Below are positions 5,023 to 41,802 of a DNA stretch of 64,000 nucleotides, piece after piece. The translations under genes and the position numbers were made by a program. The stretch is from Podarcis liolepis. Its lineage: Eukaryota. Each line of letters starts with the position of its first letter. Position 1 is the first letter of the stretch. Where the stretch lies: assembly GCA_965112155.1 (NCBI GenBank), contig OZ218111.1; one strand, given 5' to 3'. Below the pieces are notes generated by a model, which searched no databases, was not told the origin of the DNA, and saw only the letters and a program-made list of their open reading frames with translations.

Positions 5023-5355
5023 CTCAATAGTGTATTTTCTGAAATATTTTCTATTTTTTACAAAAATTGACCACTTTTGAAACTGTAAATGCACAGATGC
5101 CAGCATGCAGTCAGTCATAGTGCTCACAGGGATGTTTTTGTTCCACCAACCTTTTTTTTGTGAAAATAAAATAATGTCTGTGACATGCATGGAGGAATCC
5201 TGTTTTCACCCAGCACCGTGGATATGTGTTGTGTGTTTGCCTTCCTTTTGCCTGCTGTGTTGTGGTTGATGCTGTGGTGTCTATAGAAGCAGTTTGCATG
5301 ATTCTGCGGATCAGTAATAACCATGCCCTACTACTTCTGTCTGAAGACTCACCAG

Positions 5356-5997
5356 CCCAAGGAAGAAACGAAGGTCCCAGAAAGCAAAAGGGCTGAGAAC
5401 CAGCAACTGAAGACCAAGCGCCTGAAGGAGTACACCATCAAGTGCCACTCCAGCATGCCACCCAACAACACCTACATCAACTTTGAGCGCTTTGCCTATG
5501 TGGTGGAAGACATCTCCAGGATGGAGCAGAACTTCAGTGCTCTGGCAGTGTCCCATGATGCTTTGCAGGAGGACATTGACGCCCTCGTTTCCATCTACAA
5601 CGAGAAAGAAGCTTGGTACAAAGAAGAACATGAAAACGTGAGACATGAACTTTCCCAGCTGAAGTACGAGTATCGCAAGATTGAATCCCTGAAGAAGCAC
5701 CTGCAGGAGGACATCAGACTTGTGGGCAGCAGCCTCACTGGTGTTGCCAGCAAGTACATGGACCGGCAGTCCCATTACGAGTCCTTGAGTAAGGAATTGT
5801 CCGAAGAACTCAAGTGGATTCAGGAATTTACAGGCAGCTCTCAGCTGGAAGATGGAAGTGACGCCTACATCACTGGAAATTTTGGCTCCGTCTTTAACAA
5901 AGATATAAATGACTCTCTTAGGGAGCTGCTAAATAGATCCTGCTGTGAAGAATTCCTAGCTGCCTTGAACCCAGGTGTTACAAAATCAAGTCAGTAA
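5356..5997 (+). CDS. DAPK2: DAPK2 beta (DRP-1beta) alternative terminal exon encoding a ZIPK/DAPK3-like coiled-coil/leucine-zipper tail
   Basis: LKTKRLKEYTIKCHSSMPPNNTYINFERF...YNEKEAWYKEE...YESLSKELSEELKWIQE is collinear with the DAPK3 extracatalytic region. Phase-0 acceptor cAG at 5354-5355 (alternative AG at 5345-5346) is in frame with exon 3641-3686. Stop TAA at 5995-5997. Confidence 0.9.
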   Translation, partial: PKEETKVPESKRAENQQLKTKRLKEYTIKCHSSMPPNNTYINFERFAYVVEDISRMEQNFSALAVSHDALQEDIDALVSIYNEKEAWYKEEHENVRHELSQLKYEYRKIESLKKHLQEDIRLVGSSLTGVASKYMDRQSHYESLSKELSEELKWIQEFTGSSQLEDGSDAYITGNFGSVFNKDINDSLRELLNRSCCEEFLAALNPGVTKSSQ

Positions 5998-16305: not shown

Positions 16306-17029
16306 AATCAGGCTGTGGATGTAAATTCAGCAAACCCATCAAAAGAGAAAAGTAGGATAGGAATGGACAAAGCTGGCATCAATCCATGAGGATGCCACAC
16401 CACACCTTTGTGGCAAATATTCATCTCTGGCCCTGCTTCAGTTCTCTGGGAAGAGGATTCAGGTGGCAGTGGGGTGGGTGGCCTCTGCCCTACCCACTGA
16501 GCTGTCACCAGATGGTTCTTTACAGCCAGCTCCGTGCATGACCAGGACTGTGCAGCTGGGCTTGCAGGTGTGGCCAGGCAGCTTCATTTGGTGCTCTGCC
16601 TCAGTTGGGCGGCACAGCATCCAGCCCCAGCTCTGCCCCTTCATCCAAACCTGTAGAAACCTTGATCTCCCAGAGGATTCTGCATGTAAAACCACTTAGC
16701 ATAATTGTGGGGTAGTGGTGGCTGCTGGCCAAGATGACTTTGAAAGGGGATTCAAGCCATTCTTGGGAGAAGAGGAGAGGCCTGTCAGTGGCTACTAGTT
16801 CTCATGGCTAATATGCTAGTTTATTGTTCAGAGGCAGTGACTATCTCTTGGGGTGGGGGTGGGGAAATAAGAGGGAAGGCAATTACCTTCATGTCCTGCT
16901 TATGGGAAGCTTTGACAGGCAGGTGTTAGAAAGAGGATCTTGAACTAGCTGGGTCTTTGGGGATCTGATCCAGATGGTCCCTCCACGTGTCCTTATATTC
17001 TCAAGGAGGAAGTAATTTTTTGTGCCAAA

Positions 17030-17720
17030 CATCGGAACTGGGCGTTTGCTTTCACGGAAGAGTGAAAATTCGCGACGCTGAAAGATGGCACGAATTCTTG
17101 GCCACACCCTTCCCCTGACAACCTCGGAGAGAACCTTAGGCAGGGCGTGTCTGAGCCCTGGCTGCCCGCCAGTGTCCTGGCATCCCTTGATTCGGTGGTT
17201 TCTCCTCTCTCTTTCCTCCTGGACAGCTCCCCTCTGCCTGCCACGCGCGCCTTGGTACCCAGGGAAGCTGCCCTTGCTCTGGCTGATGGCGCCTTTGTCA
17301 GCGAGGGAGCAGCAGCTCTTCCCCAGCGCTCAGCAACTGGACAGCAACTCTGCCGCTGGCGCCTCCCCAGCTGCTCGTGTCCGCGCTTTGGAAGCGCTTC
17401 TTCCTGCCTCGGGGCGCCTGGCAAGGATGGCCGGGGCGGGAGGGGCGCAGACGCAAACGGGAGGCAAACCAGCCGCTTCATAGTACTGGTATAGCGAGTG
17501 GGACTGGGAATGGGCTGCGGCGAGGGGATTGCCTGCCAGGCGACCACCAGCTTTTCCGCTCAAATTGGAATTGGCAGTTCTTAGCTTACGTCTCCCGATC
17601 CTTGATATCTCTTCCCCTCCCCTTTCTGCCTGTGTTTCCCCCCTTATCTCTCCTCCTCCCTGCAGAACTTCTCATTGCCGCCCCCCCCCCGCGCCGCCGC
17701 CACCTTTCCTTCCCAAGGTT
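17030..17720. promoter_or_regulatory. CpG-rich island not attached to any recognisable gene
   Basis: Locally high CpG against a CpG-depleted background. ETS CGGAAG at 17055, YY1-like AAGATGGC at 17082, GC box GGGGCGGG at 17433. Confidence 0.55.
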
Positions 17721-22989: not shown

Positions 22990-23680
22990 GATGGGTCGCA
23001 GACACCCCGGGAGGCGCCCACCGCCCTCCAGCAGGGGGCGCGCTGCCAGCCCCTCCCGCCGTCCCTCCCTGCGCCTGACGCTAGGGGGCGGCAGACAGCG
23101 GGAAGGTAGAGAGGAAAAACTGAAGCGGGCGAGTGCGCGGGGCGGGGGGCAGAAGAAAGAGGCGGCGGCGGCGGCGGATCTCGCGAGGCCCCTGCGGAAG
23201 TCCCGCGAGATCTCGCCGACTCTTTCCCTCCCCGCGTCATGTTTCCTCCCCTTTGACAAGCTGCTGCCGGAGAAGCAGGAGAAGCGGGGAGGACGGGGCG
23301 CCGCCGCTGCCGCCGCCGCCTCACGGGACCTCCCGCCGCGGGCCCCGCCAGCCTTGCCCGGACCGCGCCTTGGTAAAGGGGTCTCCTCCCGGCGCGCTCC
23401 TCGGCGTCCCCGCGGGCGCCCGCGCTGAGGGAAGGCGAGGCCTGAGGGGAGGGGGGAGGGGCAACCGCCGCCGGGGAGGGGCGGGGGGAGGGGAGCCGAG
23501 CGGGGAGGGAGGGGCCCCGCCCCCCGCGGAAAGGGAGGGGGCCAGGGCGACCCCGCCCGGCACCCAGGGGACTCCCGCCCCATTTGGGCGCCTTCCCCCA
23601 TTATTTGGGGCGCTCCTGCCCTCGACCTCGCCGCGACGCCGACGCCGCCGCTCTTCATCTCGCTCACGATCTCTTATTTA
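22990..23680 (+). promoter_or_regulatory. HERC1: HERC1 CpG-island promoter
   Basis: Very GC/CpG-rich. GC boxes, ETS/GABPA CGGAAGT near 23196, and TCTCGCGAGA-like motifs at 23179 and 23201. It is the nearest non-TE CpG island upstream of the first HERC1 coding exon. Confidence 0.85.
23220..23372 (+). other. HERC1: Probable HERC1 non-coding exon 1 (start approximate)
   Basis: Donor CTTG|GTAAAG at 23372/23373 inside the CpG island. The first coding exon has an acceptor upstream of its ATG, so a 5' exon must exist. Confidence 0.6.
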
Positions 23681-26677
23681 TTATGATGCTGTTGGTGTAA
23701 TAATAGATCTTGGACTTGGCTGTTCTTACGGCAATTCCGCCGCCGTCGCTAGTGGTCTTATTTGTGTCAGTGCCATCCATATTACGATAGTCTTGCTGCT
23801 GCTGCTGCTGCTCTTGCTGCTGGTTGTTATTGTTATGTGTGACAGTGCGCGTAGCAATTCGCACAGATCTGTAAGCAACGTTACACTCACACACGGCCCT
23901 TTCCTCTCCCTGTAGGCCCACACAATCTGAAATCAATTGTGAGGGAGACAGGATGGTTCCTAGGGCTGAACAGGAGCTTGCTGATGCCTTCTTCTGTTCT
24001 GTTTCCTCAGCAGTAAAATCCCTGCCTCAACTTCCAGTCTTGGAGCCTGAAAGGCAATTTGCTTAACCACGTGGAGTTATTCTTGATTTTTTCCTTTTCA
24101 ACAGGCTACATCAAGTGTCCCATAAGTGGGTTGCCTGAAATAAAAATCACAAGCAAAACCTGCAATTAGGCCCACATTAGTAAATGCCCCCCGGCATGTG
24201 TTGAGTGGTGGCATGTGGGTCTGCAACTTTTGCTCCTGATGGGCAGTTTGGGTGAATCATCTAGCCATGTGGGTGGAGTGCCACCTGGGCTGGGGGATGG
24301 TGGGAATGGCTGGCCAAGAGGGTTTGTGTGCATCTTCCCACAAAAGTGTATTATTTTGCAGTGGTTAATCTGAGATGCTCTCACTGTGAAAGCAGAGCAC
24401 TATAATTGCACCCATAAAGATATAATGAAAGAACAATAAGTAATCCACCCTTGAACAGCTCCTTGAAGTGCCCCATTAGTCTCCAAGCCTTACTGCAGCT
24501 GGTAGTAGCTCCTGTGTGCCAGGGAGGCTTTTTAAACCAGGGGTGGGTAGACTTGAGGTTATTCAGATCTACTTTGTTGTTTACTTGAACCTCAAGTTCC
24601 ACCAAAGCCAGTTGAAAAGACATACAATTAGAATTTAAAGAACAGGTTGCTTTTGAGAACATTCTGGGCCTAGGTACCAGAAATGAACTGAACTCAGTCA
24701 TTGACTCCTGGCTTATTCATTTCTGTGGCCTGAGATAGGAAAAAAAAGACATTGTTGTTAAAACAAATGGGAGTCAGAAGTTCTCCTGCAAATCACCCAA
24801 ATATCTACCATCCCTGATTTAAATGACCTACGTATCTGGGTCTTTCCAGCAAAATTGGCACACACCCCACCTGTTGCTATAGTCCGTTGTGTGCACAGGA
24901 TTTCTCTGTTGTTGGATATGTGAAGTGTGAAATATCCAGCTGTCAATTTGTTGTGAGCTGGCCTTCATTGCTGAGGACCTGTTTGTTATTCCACAGAATT
25001 ACAGAGCAAATATGGTGGCTCTTTTGGCTAGTTCTCTTCTTTTTCCAGGAATGCAACTGCTGTGTTAGATGTGCCCAGTGTTTTTTTCTTTCTAAAAAAA
25101 ATGTTTGGGGGGGACTCTCATTTTCCTACTCATATTGAAATACTGCCCCTCAAGGAGACCAAATTTAGATTCACAACATGTATACATGTATACATGTATA
25201 TATATGCATACCCCTGCGTCCCCCCAGAAAAAAGTACTGGATGTGCCATATATACATTTGTTACTTTTCTAATTTTCTCCTGTACACATCACTGGGCCTT
25301 ATATACCTGTTTGGCGTTAAATGAAACATTTGAGTTGTCCAACATAAAGCTGTAACAAGTGTTATGGTGTCAGAAAATTGGCAAGAGAGGTTCTTTTTCT
25401 TGTGTGTTCCTATGATAGTCCTTCATAATATTGTGAAGCTTCTTAGTATAAATAGCATAATTATGAATTGGGTTAATATTCCCAGCTTATTCATATACAG
25501 TATTGAAGGTTCTTTTCTAGGCTATTCTGTAGTTTCAAGCCTTTTTGTAACAAAGTTAAGTAACTGGAAAATAACTTCAAGTACCCCTATGCTGGCGCTG
25601 CATATTTAGGAACTGGACTCAGAAATTTGGGCACCAACATTGCCCTTATCTATGAACAAGCATCATAACTATATAGGTACAAAGGCAACCAAAGTCCTGG
25701 GACATTTCCTCTCCTCAGATGACCTTAGGCAGCTTCCAAGTCCCTCAGTGGTATAGTCTTTTCTTTGTGGTTTGATTAATTCCCATGTCTTATACAGGGG
25801 AATGATCATAAGGATTGCATGCATGCTTGGAATTGTCACATTGAACTTATATTCCATATTCCATGCAGACATTCATAGGATCAGGTTCTTTGTAACTTAT
25901 TTCAGTTCATAAATGAGTAGTGGATACCATGGATTTTACTTTGTGAAGAAAATGAACTCTTTATTTATCAAATAGCAAACTTTACAAAGGTAAGAGAAAC
26001 AGTATGTTATACTGCACGTAAAATCAGCCATATTGTCCAGTACGATGTTATGGATTTAGTGAAACCACCATACACTTCAATTTTTCTCATTTCAGTTGTT
26101 TAAACTTTTTAAGTGGCATTTGTCTGTCTTCCATGTCTCTTTAAACCAGGCGTGGGGAACCTTTCACCCTCCAGATGTTGCTGAACTACAGCTCTTGACA
26201 GACATAGCAAGTAGGGCCAGCAGCCAGCTATTGATTGATTGAGTAACTTTATTTATACGCCACTTTTCCACAGAGTGCTGTGCCCAAAATGACTTCCAAC
26301 AGATACCTGGAAGTGAATAAAAATATTTATTAAAAAACACCCTGCAGACATCTACTTATTATCAAATACACATGCACTGTTATAGGATTTAATCAACACG
26401 TAGGGGGCTAAAGGTTCCCCAAACCTACTTTAAACTACAGATTAAATTAAACAATGGTTTGAACTGAACAAAGCAATGTGCTGTGTATGCTGCACACACC
26501 ACATACTTTGGGGACTGATTATGATGGGGTTTTGGTCACAACATACCAACTTAAGACCAGTGCTTTAATGATTAATTCAAACTCCATCTATTGTGGTGAG
26601 GATATTTCTTTACCTATAAAGGGACTAGATTGACAGCTTGATACCAGTTTGATCTGTGTACTACTAGTCTTCTAGCT

Positions 26678-27705
26678 CAGTGTTTCCCAACCGGTGTTCC
26701 GCGGCACACTAGTGTGCCGCGAGATGTTGCCTGGTGTGCCGCGAGATGTTGCCTGGAGGGAGGCGGGCGAGTCCAAAAAAGGTTGGGAAACACTGAAGTT
26801 TCTCTTTCAAAAAGGAAACGTGGGTTAAAGCGGCGCCGCCGCCTCCCACTCACTTTCCTGCTCTGGCTTCCCTAACAGTTTTCCGAGTTGCGTCACTGGA
26901 TCCAGCCCCCTTTTCCACATGTGACACGGGGCTGGAGGGAGGGAAAGAGGGCTTTACGTCGCGCACAAAGGCAGCCTCCTAGAAGCGCTCTGGGCCGGCG
27001 CCGTTTCGCCGAAGGCGCCGGAGGACCCCCACCCTCAGCTCCTTCAGAAAGGAAGCCCCGCCCCTCGGCTCCCTACGCCGCCAGGCAGCTCAGCTGACTG
27101 ACGAGGACGTTCTGCGGCGGCGGCCACCGCACAACCACCGCAGTTGCTGGCAGCGTCCGCAGCGCAATAAGTAACAGCGCCTGGTGCTGCCAACTCTTTC
27201 TCTCTCTCTCCCGCCCCCCCCGCCCCCAAGCTCTCGCGCGCCCCGCGTCAACATCGCCGTACGCAGCTTCCCGAGCTCGAGGCTAGCCGCTGCACACACG
27301 CGCCGGCTCGTCATCGGCTCCGGTTGTTGCCTTTCTCCGCCGAGGTCGGTGGACCCCGAGCCTAGGCTTCCTTCCCGCACCCCGCTTTCCGAAGACCGCA
27401 CACCAGTTGGGCCAGTACATATTCCCCTCCCGTGACTGGAGCGGAATAGCCCTTTCTCTTCTTCCCCAACCCTTGTCGTTGGAGGAGTCCCTCAGTCCCT
27501 CGCTTTGCTGCCTCCTCCCCCCCCACCCCCAAAGCTTGGAGGTTCCCCGGCAAGGGGGAGGGAAAAAAATTGAAACTTACACTTTCGTGCGTCCCTCCCG
27601 GCGTGACGCTGCGCGCTGACGTGACGGGGCTATAATGGTGGTGTGCCTCGAGATTTTTTTCATCAAACAAGTGTGCCTTTGCCCAAAAAAGGTTGGGAAA
27701 CACTG
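26678..27705. mobile_element. Non-autonomous hAT (Charlie-like) element carrying GC-rich internal cargo
   Basis: TIR CAGTGTTTCCCAACC at 26678 and GGTTGGGAAACACTG at 27691-27705. Perfect 8-bp TSD TTCTAGCT at 26670-26677 and 27706-27713. A third, internal right TIR at 26781-26795. Confidence 0.92.
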
Positions 27706-27965
27706 TTCTAGCTAACCATATTTCTCTGGTGCCATGCAAATATTTTGGACCACAACAAGCCATGCTCCTGCCAGCCCCAGCATCATATGGCTGTGGTGGC
27801 TTGAGCTAATGAGAATTGTACGTAGTTCAAAACAACTGGAGGGCACAAGGTTGGTGCAGGCTGCTCTGAATATTTTTTCTTATATAAATAGGAGGGATTG
27901 CTGTTTTTAAAGAAGTTTGCTAGTGAAATGCTTGATTTAGGCTCAGGCTCATTTAACATTTATAT

Positions 27966-28354
27966 GGCCTGGTTTGCACATTGCCCTGAGCTTAAGCATG
28001 GCTTAGCAAAAGTATGTGGGCTCCAGGAGAGGAGATCCTGATTGCTTTGCTTCTCTCCCATGAACTAAGTCCTAGTTTGGCTTAGTATGTTGTCCAAACT
28101 AGGACTTATGATTTAGCTCTTCCTGACACACCACAAACTGTAAATCACAGGACAGATATTGGTTACAGCTTGTGGTTAGTTTTGGAGAGAGCTAAACCAT
28201 GAGCCTTGGACCACACACTAAGCCAAATGATGGTGTAGCTCAGCATAACAGCAAAATGAATGTGGAGTAACTAAGCAGACACAATCTCCTATCTGGGAGC
28301 CCGAGTGTTCACACTAAGCTGTGGTTTAGCTTAATGTGATGTGCAAACCATGGC
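27966..28354. mobile_element. PIF/Harbinger-like palindromic MITE (degraded)
   Basis: Ends GGCCTGGTTTGCACAT...ATGTGCAAACCATGGC, with internal imperfect inverted repeats. Confidence 0.6.
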
Positions 28355-33744: not shown

Positions 33745-34052
33745 CAGTGGTGCCTTGCAAGACGAAAAGAATCCGATTCTCTTTTTTCGTCTTGCGAAGC
33801 AAGCCCATTGAAGGATTAGCGCTATTAGCGGCTTTTAGCGGCTTATCTGCTGATCGGATCAGCTGATAAGCGGCTTAGCGGCTTAGAAAAAGGGGGGGAG
33901 GAAAAAAAACCCAGCAGGAACTCGCAAGACATTGTCGTCTTGCGAAGCAAGCCCATAGGAGATTTGTTTTGCGAAGCACCTCCAAAACGGAAAACTCTTT
34001 CGTCTAGCGAGCTTTCCGTCTTGCGAGGCATTCGTCTTGTGGGGCACCACTG
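33745..34052. mobile_element. Tigger/pogo-like MITE (copy A of an inverted pair)
   Basis: TA-CAGTGGTGCCTTGCAAGACG...CGTCTTGTGGGGCACCACTG-TA. Confidence 0.88.
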
Positions 34053-34610
34053 TACATTACCTCAAGTGTAAGGCAGCCATTACATAGGGAGATACTCCTG
34101 TCGTTTACCTACAAATCCCATGAATCCCAGAGGCTGCAACTCCCATGATTCCTCTTGACTACCCTCCTATTTTTTAAAAAAATATCCCTTAACCACACCT
34201 CCTTGGTGTGCAGTTGAACGTTTTAATATGGTAAATTCAACTAAATTCAACCTGCGGGAGGCCCCCACTTGTCTTGTTTATTGCTCCTGCAATGATTATG
34301 CTTTGGGATCACTTTTAGGGCCAGAAAGAGGGGTGCGACTATTATGCGGTGAAATACAGTAATAAATAAAGAAATTGATTATTATTAATAATAATTTTAT
34401 TATTTATACCCCACCCATATGGCTGGATTGCCAGTGTGGTGTAGTGGTTAGTGTGTGTCTGTACGACTAGGATCTGGGCAACCAGGGTTCAAATCTTGAC
34501 TCAACCATGAATTTTACTGGGTGTTACTATCCTATACATGCCTAAATTTAAGTCCTACAGTCCTCTTTGTATAACCTGTTTTACTGTGGCTGGTTACAAC
34601 CTTCCAAATA

Positions 34611-34929
34611 CAGTGGTGCCCTGCAAGATGAATGCCTCACAAGACGGAAAACTCGCTAGACTTAAGAGTTTTCCGTTTTGGAGGTGCTTCGCAAAACAAA
34701 TTTCCTATGGGCTTGCTTCGCAAGACGACAATGTCTTGCGAGTTCCTGCTGTTTTTTTCCCCTTCCCCCCCTTTTTCTAAGCCGCTTATCAGCTGATCCG
34801 ATCAGCAGATAAGCCGCTAAAAGCCGCTAATAGCGCTAATCCGTCAATGGGCTTGCTTTGCAAGACGAAAAAACCGCTAGACGAAGAGAATCACAGAACG
34901 GATTCTTTTTGTCTTGCGAGGCACCACTG
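34611..34929. mobile_element. Tigger/pogo-like MITE (copy B, reverse orientation to copy A)
   Basis: TA-CAGTGGTGCCCTGCAAGATG...GTCTTGCGAGGCACCACTG-TA. The interior is the reverse complement of 33745-34052. Confidence 0.88.
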
Positions 34930-40733: not shown

Positions 40734-41663
40734 ATGGCAGCCATGGTTCCACCAGTGAAGCTGAAATGGCTTGAACATCTAAATAGCTCTTGGATCACAG
40801 AAGATAGTGAATCTATTGCTACAAGGGAAGGAGTCTCCATCTTATATGCTAAATTAGTCAGTAATAAAGAAGTAGTACCATTGCCTCAGCAGGTTCTCTG
40901 TCTCAAAGGACCTCAGCTACCAGATTTTGAACGGGAGTCCTTATCAAGCGATGAACAGGACCACTATTTGGATGCCCTTCTTAGCAGCCAGCTGGCTCTG
41001 GCTAAGATGGTGTGCTCAGACTCTCCATTTGCTGGAGCACTTCGCAAACGTTTGCTTGTGTTACAACGCATCTTTTATGCACTTTCTAATAAATATCATG
41101 ATAAAGGCAAGGTGAAACAGCAGCAGCATTCTCCAGAAAGCAGTTCTGGGTCAACAGACATCCATTCCGTTAGTGAGCGGCCAAGGTCAAGTACAGACGC
41201 GCTAATAGAAATGGGGGTCCGGACTGGACTGAGCCTGTTATTTGCACTGTTACGGCAAAGCTGGATGATGCCTGCTTCAGGGCCTGGTATTAGCCTTTGC
41301 AATGATGTTATCCACACGGCGATAGAGGTTGTGAGCTCTTTGCCACCTTTATCTCTAGCTAATGAAAGTAAAATCCCACCAATGGGTCTGGACTGCCTGT
41401 CTCAGGTAACAACATTTCTTAAAGGAGTAACGATTCCCAACTCTGGAGCAGATACTCTTGGACGGAGGCTGGCTTCTGAGTTGCTGCTTGGCTTGGCTGC
41501 TCAGCGTGGGTCACTTCGGTATCTGCTGGAATGGATTGAAATGGCACTAAGTGCATCAGCCGTGGTCAACACAATGGAGAAGAACAAAATGCTGCATACA
41601 CAGGAGGGGATGATCAGTTTTGATTGTTTCATGAACATATTGATGCAAATGAGGCGGTCATTG
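40734..41663 (+). CDS. HERC1: HERC1 first coding exon (exon begins at 40708), MAAMVPPVKLKWLEHLNSSW...MQMRRSL
   Basis: Near identity to the vertebrate HERC1 N-terminus as recalled. tgtAG acceptor at 40706-40707, GTATGT donor, 930 coding nt. Confidence 0.97.
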
Positions 41664-41802
41664 GTATGTATGCAGAATGTATACTTCAAATTGATTTTTT
41701 TAATTCTTGGCTCTTACTTCCATTAACAGATTTATTGTTATCATTGAGATTTATAGAAGTTTTGGAGTCCCTGTGTGCCTGGATTGGCATGAGTTGTACT
41801 TA

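Follow-up and report, generated by a model that had tools for sequence, protein, structure and literature searches.

The window, by which we mean the whole 64,000-nucleotide stretch of DNA analyzed here, includes an exon with an ATG at 40734 whose product shows 96% identity to named HERC1 proteins. A sequence-only reading of this DNA had placed an insertion in HERC1 intron 1; the gene assignment is firm, and the intron we infer from a CpG island at 23000-23700, which likely comprises the HERC1 promoter and noncoding exon 1, together with a donor-like site near 23373 within that island. The element lies 3.3 kb beyond this site and ahead of the exon in which HERC1 coding begins. The features on which the argument depends are as follows (o/e, observed/expected ratio; TSD, target site duplication; TIR, terminal inverted repeat).

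23000..23700, plus strand: host CpG island, GC 0.74, CpG o/e 0.89
26670..26677: left 8-bp TSD, TTCTAGCT, with TA at positions 4-5
26678..26772, plus strand: left arm, with the 15-bp TIR, subterminal GTGTGCC-type repeats, and a GC-rich spacer
26712..26755, plus strand: exact 22-bp tandem duplication (units 26712-26733 and 26734-26755), absent from many family copies
26773..26795, minus strand: inner 23-bp right end, which closes a 118-bp unit and is without the subterminal repeats of the outer end
26796..27486: 691-bp core, GC 0.64, CpG o/e 0.94, a multicopy, subfamily-specific filler
27487..27682: right arm, with far more copies than the core, carrying a donor-like hexamer and three CRE half-sites
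27683..27705, minus strand: outer 23-bp right end, used in the HERC1 insertion
27706..27713: right 8-bp TSD, TTCTAGCT, an exact match to the left TSD
40734..41666, plus strand: HERC1 first coding exon, from protein identity

Several other features share the window. A second CpG-rich stretch (16900-17700; GC 0.59, o/e 0.63) lies 6 kb upstream of the HERC1 island and has no match to the element. Two similar elements of ~320 bp with TA-flanked inverted ends (33745-34054 and 34611-34929) stand in inverted orientation ~550 bp apart. A 597-aa open frame at 1155-2948 is a putative reverse transcriptase of a non-LTR element, and a 231-aa open frame with a coiled-coil look at 5302-5997 may resemble an alternative last exon of DAPK2.

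The insertion is a hAT-type element of 1,028 bp (26678-27705) between two exact copies of TTCTAGCT, a TSD with a central TA (nnnTAnnn) and one mismatch to NTCTAGAN. Its 15-bp TIR is found at 26678-26692 on the plus strand and at 26781-26795 and 27691-27705 on the minus strand, the only exact matches in the window (n = 3), and it begins with CAGTG, which fits the YARNG start motif (PMC3014272). The two right ends, inner and outer, match letter for letter across 23 bp (26773-26795 and 27683-27705). None of five third-order Markov copies of the window contained an exact 8-bp TSD with a perfect 15-bp TIR. The interior as originally delimited, 26796-27630, has a GC content of 0.64 and a CpG o/e of 0.91, versus 0.29 for the window. 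Every coordinate that the sequence-only reading had given for the TSD, the TIRs, the tandem duplication, the CpG-rich interior, and its named motifs proved correct. A self-search of the 64-kb window found no second copy of the ends or the core, the interior showed no significant duplication within itself (12 and 18 of 200 shuffles), and no Pfam family matched the 14 frames submitted of 31 stop-to-stop frames. Most likely, this is a noncoding, nonautonomous hAT element of the Buster/Charlie type.

Four of 24 listed public runs were used, with 26400-28000 compared at 90% likeness; among them are X1 (organism A) and X3 (organism B), which are DNA-type runs, and X15 (organism B), which is RNA only by guess. 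Among the runs listed as matching, none is on record as RNA. In X1, a contig of depth 20.7 joins 26669 to 27706, skipping 1,036 positions with 8 shared letters, and in X3, a 1,460-bp contig of depth 9.89 has the same joint, again with 8 shared letters. Thus, an empty site bearing a single 8-mer, which had been put forward as something to look for in related organisms, is present in both DNA-type runs (2/2), and the insertion is therefore recent. The joint skips the whole element as far as 27706, in agreement with the earlier proposal that mobilization used the distal right end. The four longest window-like flank pieces from organism A are identical to the window; if the window comes from organism A, the HERC1 insertion is polymorphic. 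The depth of the X1 empty contig fits one haplotype, and rare forms drop out of contigs. Organism B has 29 additional letters at 27948 relative to the window.

Depth is not copy number, but the core is clearly repeated. Its contigs in X1 (26921-27206 at depth 2166 and 27310-27514 at depth 3310, against a flank of 20-32) and in X3 (26845-26930 at 855, 26901-27338 at 543, and 27352-27436 at 1146, within an overall range of 543-1160, against a flank of 9.89) stand individually at 55-116 times flank depth, for which the safe reading is tens of copies or more. These copies are close to the window, with 1 of 286, 0 of 205, and 5 of 434 letters different in core contigs. In organism B, a single 546-bp contig (X15 record 12) spans 26736-27287 without a break and includes the inner end; the junction between the inner end and the interior is therefore a trait of the subfamily across organisms. 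The suggestion that the whole might be a transposing, multicopy unit is thus borne out, both by interior depth and by the inner-end junction common to copies.

The arms belong to something larger. Summed depth over the left arm reaches 2e5-8e5 in X1, against a flank of 20-32, and toward the right end depth climbs stepwise at 27350, 27487, and 27633. At 27487, summed depth rises ~40-fold, and at 27623 it amounts to an overlap-inflated 6,000-9,600 times flank. Other copies part from the alignment at 27487 and 27478, going over into sequence rich in GCC or GAG, and at 27633, going over into AT-rich sequence (118 RNA reads); a major variant joins only at this last position. On the left side they depart at 26741 and 26773 into G-rich sequence, with loose ends behind 26741, at the tandem duplication, in both X1 and X3. 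Based on the depth jump and these departures, we assign 27487-27632 to the arm of a much larger family, whose interiors, given the departures into GC-rich sequence, are GC rich in general. The cargo described in the sequence-only reading accordingly shrinks to 26796-27486 (691 bp), which stands as a candidate, and its last ~145 bp turn out to be a very-high-copy family arm; to that extent the interior is what the same reading had named as evidence against itself, namely, ordinary hAT sequence. Averaged over RNA reads (98 and 72), the flanks of family ends give an NTCTAGA-type target. One X1 contig of depth 20.9 joins a right end to a left end over a single 8-bp central-TA spacer, so that elsewhere in the genome two family members stand head to tail.

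The 118-bp unit has a life of its own. X15 record 11 covers 26686-26795 and continues into 218 other letters, which we place behind 26795 because of the minus-strand numbering convention set by X1 record 1, the only X1 record that crosses a stretch end. Thus, in one contig, the free-standing 118-bp miniature element (MITE) that had been postulated exists. X3 record 18 (26695-26795) likewise ends at 26795, at 9 times flank depth. The 8 bases that follow the inner end are without a central TA in both length variants, and among 50 metagenome loci that carry this 23-mer, 7 of its 23 distinct flanks likewise have none. Those loci (L001-L050) have only the 23-bp end in common with the element, and since the 23-mer terminates several unrelated elements of 176-511 bp in metagenome contigs, we regard it as a generic hAT end and not as a family marker. 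A near-identical TIR is listed for insect hAT MITEs (PMC3845634). None of nine frames of at least 200 aa at the metagenome loci was recognized by eye as a transposase; viral contigs gave no match to two end patterns, and plasmids gave none.

Does the interior look like gene 5' DNA, as had been argued from its CpG content and motifs? The core, at 0.64 and 0.94, exceeds the composition cut-offs for host CpG islands (GC >0.55, CpG o/e >0.65). The CpG o/e is 0.96 in the left arm, 0.74-0.76 in the right arm, and 0.67-1.08 in six other repeated stretches of the window; because these are equally CpG rich, CpG retention indicates youth and not host origin, and it loses its value as a sign of capture. 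The alternative that the CpGs persist in an unmethylated state fares less well than youth: in all DNA depth, at least seven bases depart from the window (those listed are 27126, 27260, 27261, 27284, 27296, 27623, and 27632), and four of these seven, at three CpG sites, are CpG-type transitions. Such CpG-type decay in the window copy suggests a methylated history.

Motifs, which were picked after the fact, give a mixed answer. CRE half-sites number 7 in 26796-27630 against 1.1 expected (0/1000 shuffles) and 4 in the core against 0.96 (P 0.009), an excess that makes the interior promoter-like beyond its composition. GC boxes, also cited as promoter-like, show no excess over chance in the interior (P 0.35), and the two donor hexamers are marginal (P 0.04, again picked after the fact). 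The TGACGTGACG motif sits in the right arm, as do three CRE half-sites at 27604-27626. All family depth carries C at 27623, which yields a full CRE palindrome that the window copy is without; the change must accordingly have taken place in the window copy. The donor-like hexamer GTAAGT at 27575-27580 has another letter at 27579 across 22-55% of contig depth. With its full CRE palindrome, its CpG richness, and its thousands of times flank depth, the right arm is itself a candidate source of CREs genome-wide.

In one raw RNA run of organism B, of which 12% was read, the core has a depth of 0-9 in both orientations, with no start pile-up and no listed splice joint; the arms reach up to ~300, and the HERC1 flanks have almost none. 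The core is no more similar to the HERC1 CpG island than shuffles are (44 and 30 of 100 reached as high a score). Within HERC1, this copy probably rides along as a near-neutral passenger. On the sense strand of the gene, a pyrimidine tract followed by AG can be made out by eye at 26848-26878, and a donor-like site lies at 27345; together these could possibly define a cryptic noncoding exon in the filled allele, although a strict pattern scan did not list the acceptor.

A host-gene donor for the interior had been predicted, and no TIR-free donor of the core was found in the 64-kb window or among the listed contig pieces. Pfam, Rfam (0 matches), and protein searches placed the core in none of the known families of proteins or RNAs; the best score in the Atlas protein search (0.82) was at chance level, and the frame at 27283-27576 had no protein match. 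In a phmmer search of the longest interior frame against 1.84 billion proteins, there was one match, a 78-aa hypothetical protein of Podarcis lilfordi (CAI5779939.1). This singleton maps to 27076-27314, crossing a frameshift; in its first part it matches the family letters at three residues where the window differs, and over ~42 codons 5 further residues are unlike those of the window. Protein searches found no relatives of the 78-aa protein, longer ones included. The match shows that the core is present in wall lizards, and the P. lilfordi locus may represent either the donor or a further copy. In the mainly open literature, Repbase and Dfam aside, we found no description of this hAT family.

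The reading we favor, at somewhat better than even probability, is a composite nonautonomous hAT: a longer GC-rich relative received a 118-bp MITE, and the product amplified as a 1,028-bp unit. The MITE would have inserted ~910 bp from the right end of that relative. Its 23-bp inner end, lacking subterminal repeats, would be a poor substrate, as short ends are in the related Buster element AnBT (PMC12637253), and would often be bypassed, and the left end of the MITE and the right end of the relative could then move as one unit and amplify, mobilized in trans by a transposase not seen here; one copy would have landed in HERC1. We infer this order of events. At 26795/26796 the interior sets in precisely where an end has its last base, the outcome expected of integration, and the junction at 27487 has neither a left TIR nor a TSD, for which reason we read core and arm as one preexisting piece. 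The core is thus best read as filler already carried by the transposon family. Several observations weigh against this composite: the longer parent, with core and arm behind another left end, is absent among the listed pieces; the 8 bases after the inner end are without a central TA; the depth steps could reflect GC bias and contig overlap; the CRE half-site excess of the core is what a host promoter would be expected to show; and no autonomous partner was found. Among the loose ends listed, none leads left from 26796.

It is possible, though we think it rather doubtful, that the element is a multicopy Pack-hAT whose 691-bp core derives from the promoter or 5' exon region of a host gene, acquired by end bypass or template switching and then amplified; this amounts to the model of the sequence-only reading with a shorter cargo. 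The CpG-island composition of the core, its (CT)n and GCC tracts, and its excess of CRE half-sites and E-boxes are in keeping with such an origin, as are the precise junction of an end to foreign DNA and the existence of a free 118-bp MITE. TcBuster, whose target is nnnTAnnn, inserts preferentially at start sites and in CpG islands (PMC3499496). A tendency to GC richness is described for multicopy Pack-TIRs, and a frog hAT carries a 5' UTR (PMC8277862). Yet the family arms are equally CpG rich and contain the strongest CRE, the core is without a known protein or RNA family, no donor appears in the 64-kb window or among the listed contig pieces, and a second event would be required to join core and arm at 27487. 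The P. lilfordi homologue, with its 5 further residue differences, could be the donor, but a 78-aa singleton reading over a frameshift is also what a second transposon copy would yield.

A third order of events appears improbable: the long element came first, its inner 23-bp end arose by template switching in gap repair, and excision at that end later gave rise to the free 118-bp MITE. This would suit an inner end of just 23 bp that has no subterminal repeats and no typical target after it, and in X3 the free form seems rarer (9 times flank) than the long form (at least 55 times). However, a template switch has no reason to end exactly at a terminal base, and in the Buster element AnBT, 24-bp ends are nonfunctional and a 58-bp right end barely worked (PMC12637253), so that excision at the inner end would be unlikely. 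A one-off capture at or near HERC1 by gap filling from nearby, or host DNA flanked by ends by chance, has a negligible chance of being right: most animal Pack-TIRs are single copy with the parent nearby (PMC8277862), but here the whole 1,036 bp is missing at the empty site, no parent lies inside the window, and capture at HERC1 is excluded because the core is multicopy in organism B, whose DNA run is empty there.

If the composite of MITE and relative is correct, this is one more family among the young, structurally variable lizard hATs. Finding a donor would make the case weightier, since multicopy Pack-TIRs are rare in vertebrates: in 100 animal genomes, 208 of 370 Pack-TIRs have hAT ends and 4 cases are multicopy, one with a 5' UTR, and the lizard genome of that screen had 0 Pack-TIRs and 0 hAT library entries (PMC8277862). 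We would then be dealing with an active vertebrate Pack-hAT that spread a host promoter fragment to roughly 50-100 copies across wall-lizard species and is still polymorphic, an outcome that we consider less probable than not. Such a case would go far beyond the three-copy frog example, would provide a natural presence/absence test of mobile promoter cassettes, and would involve a cassette riding a family whose arm carries a full CRE, set in CpG-rich DNA, to thousands of sites. Whichever reading holds, a promoter or enhancer role of such CpG-rich, CRE-bearing elements is open to direct testing where presence/absence alleles lie close to the 5' end of a gene.

By its ends, the closest comparison is with the Charlie-related hATs of Anolis carolinensis (hAT-HT3N1/N3_AC and hAT-N3_AC; Novick et al., PMC3014272), which have an 8-bp TSD of the NTCTAGAN type, as here, are tabulated with an NTCTAGA-type target, and carry 14-16-bp TIRs beginning with CAGTG that are near-identical to the present TIR, with 1-2 bases different in those listed. 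At 0.3-1.5 kb and tens to hundreds of copies, they are comparable to the present element; the comparison extends to the ends only, and neither an inner end nor a CpG-island-like interior is described for them in the parts of that article that treat them. The hobo-N_AC elements of Anolis are likewise young nonautonomous lizard hATs with shared ends and interiors altered by recombination and DNA uptake, but they belong to a different hAT clade with a different TIR and TSD, and their filler consists of old TE fragments and not of promoter-like DNA (PMC3014272). Pack-hAT-N8_XT, with 291 bp of the CAPSL 5' UTR (Tan et al., PMC8277862), similarly places hAT ends around GC-rich noncoding DNA, and both it and the present element have moved by repeated transposition; it differs in having an identified parent locus and three copies, whereas ours likely has tens or more, an inner end, and no parent found. 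With TIR ends and a TSD, our element has what the Pack-TIR definition asks of termini, and, multicopy by depth, it appears to behave like the multicopy Pack-TIR class (PMC8277862), apart from the defining parent, which was not found in the window or among the listed contig pieces. The multiple-TIR MULEs and Pack-MULEs of plants (Ferguson and Jiang, PMC3310237) also carry an extra internal terminal repeat and still amplify; they are members of the Mutator superfamily with long, mostly tandem TIRs, whereas here a short right-type end lies behind the left arm.
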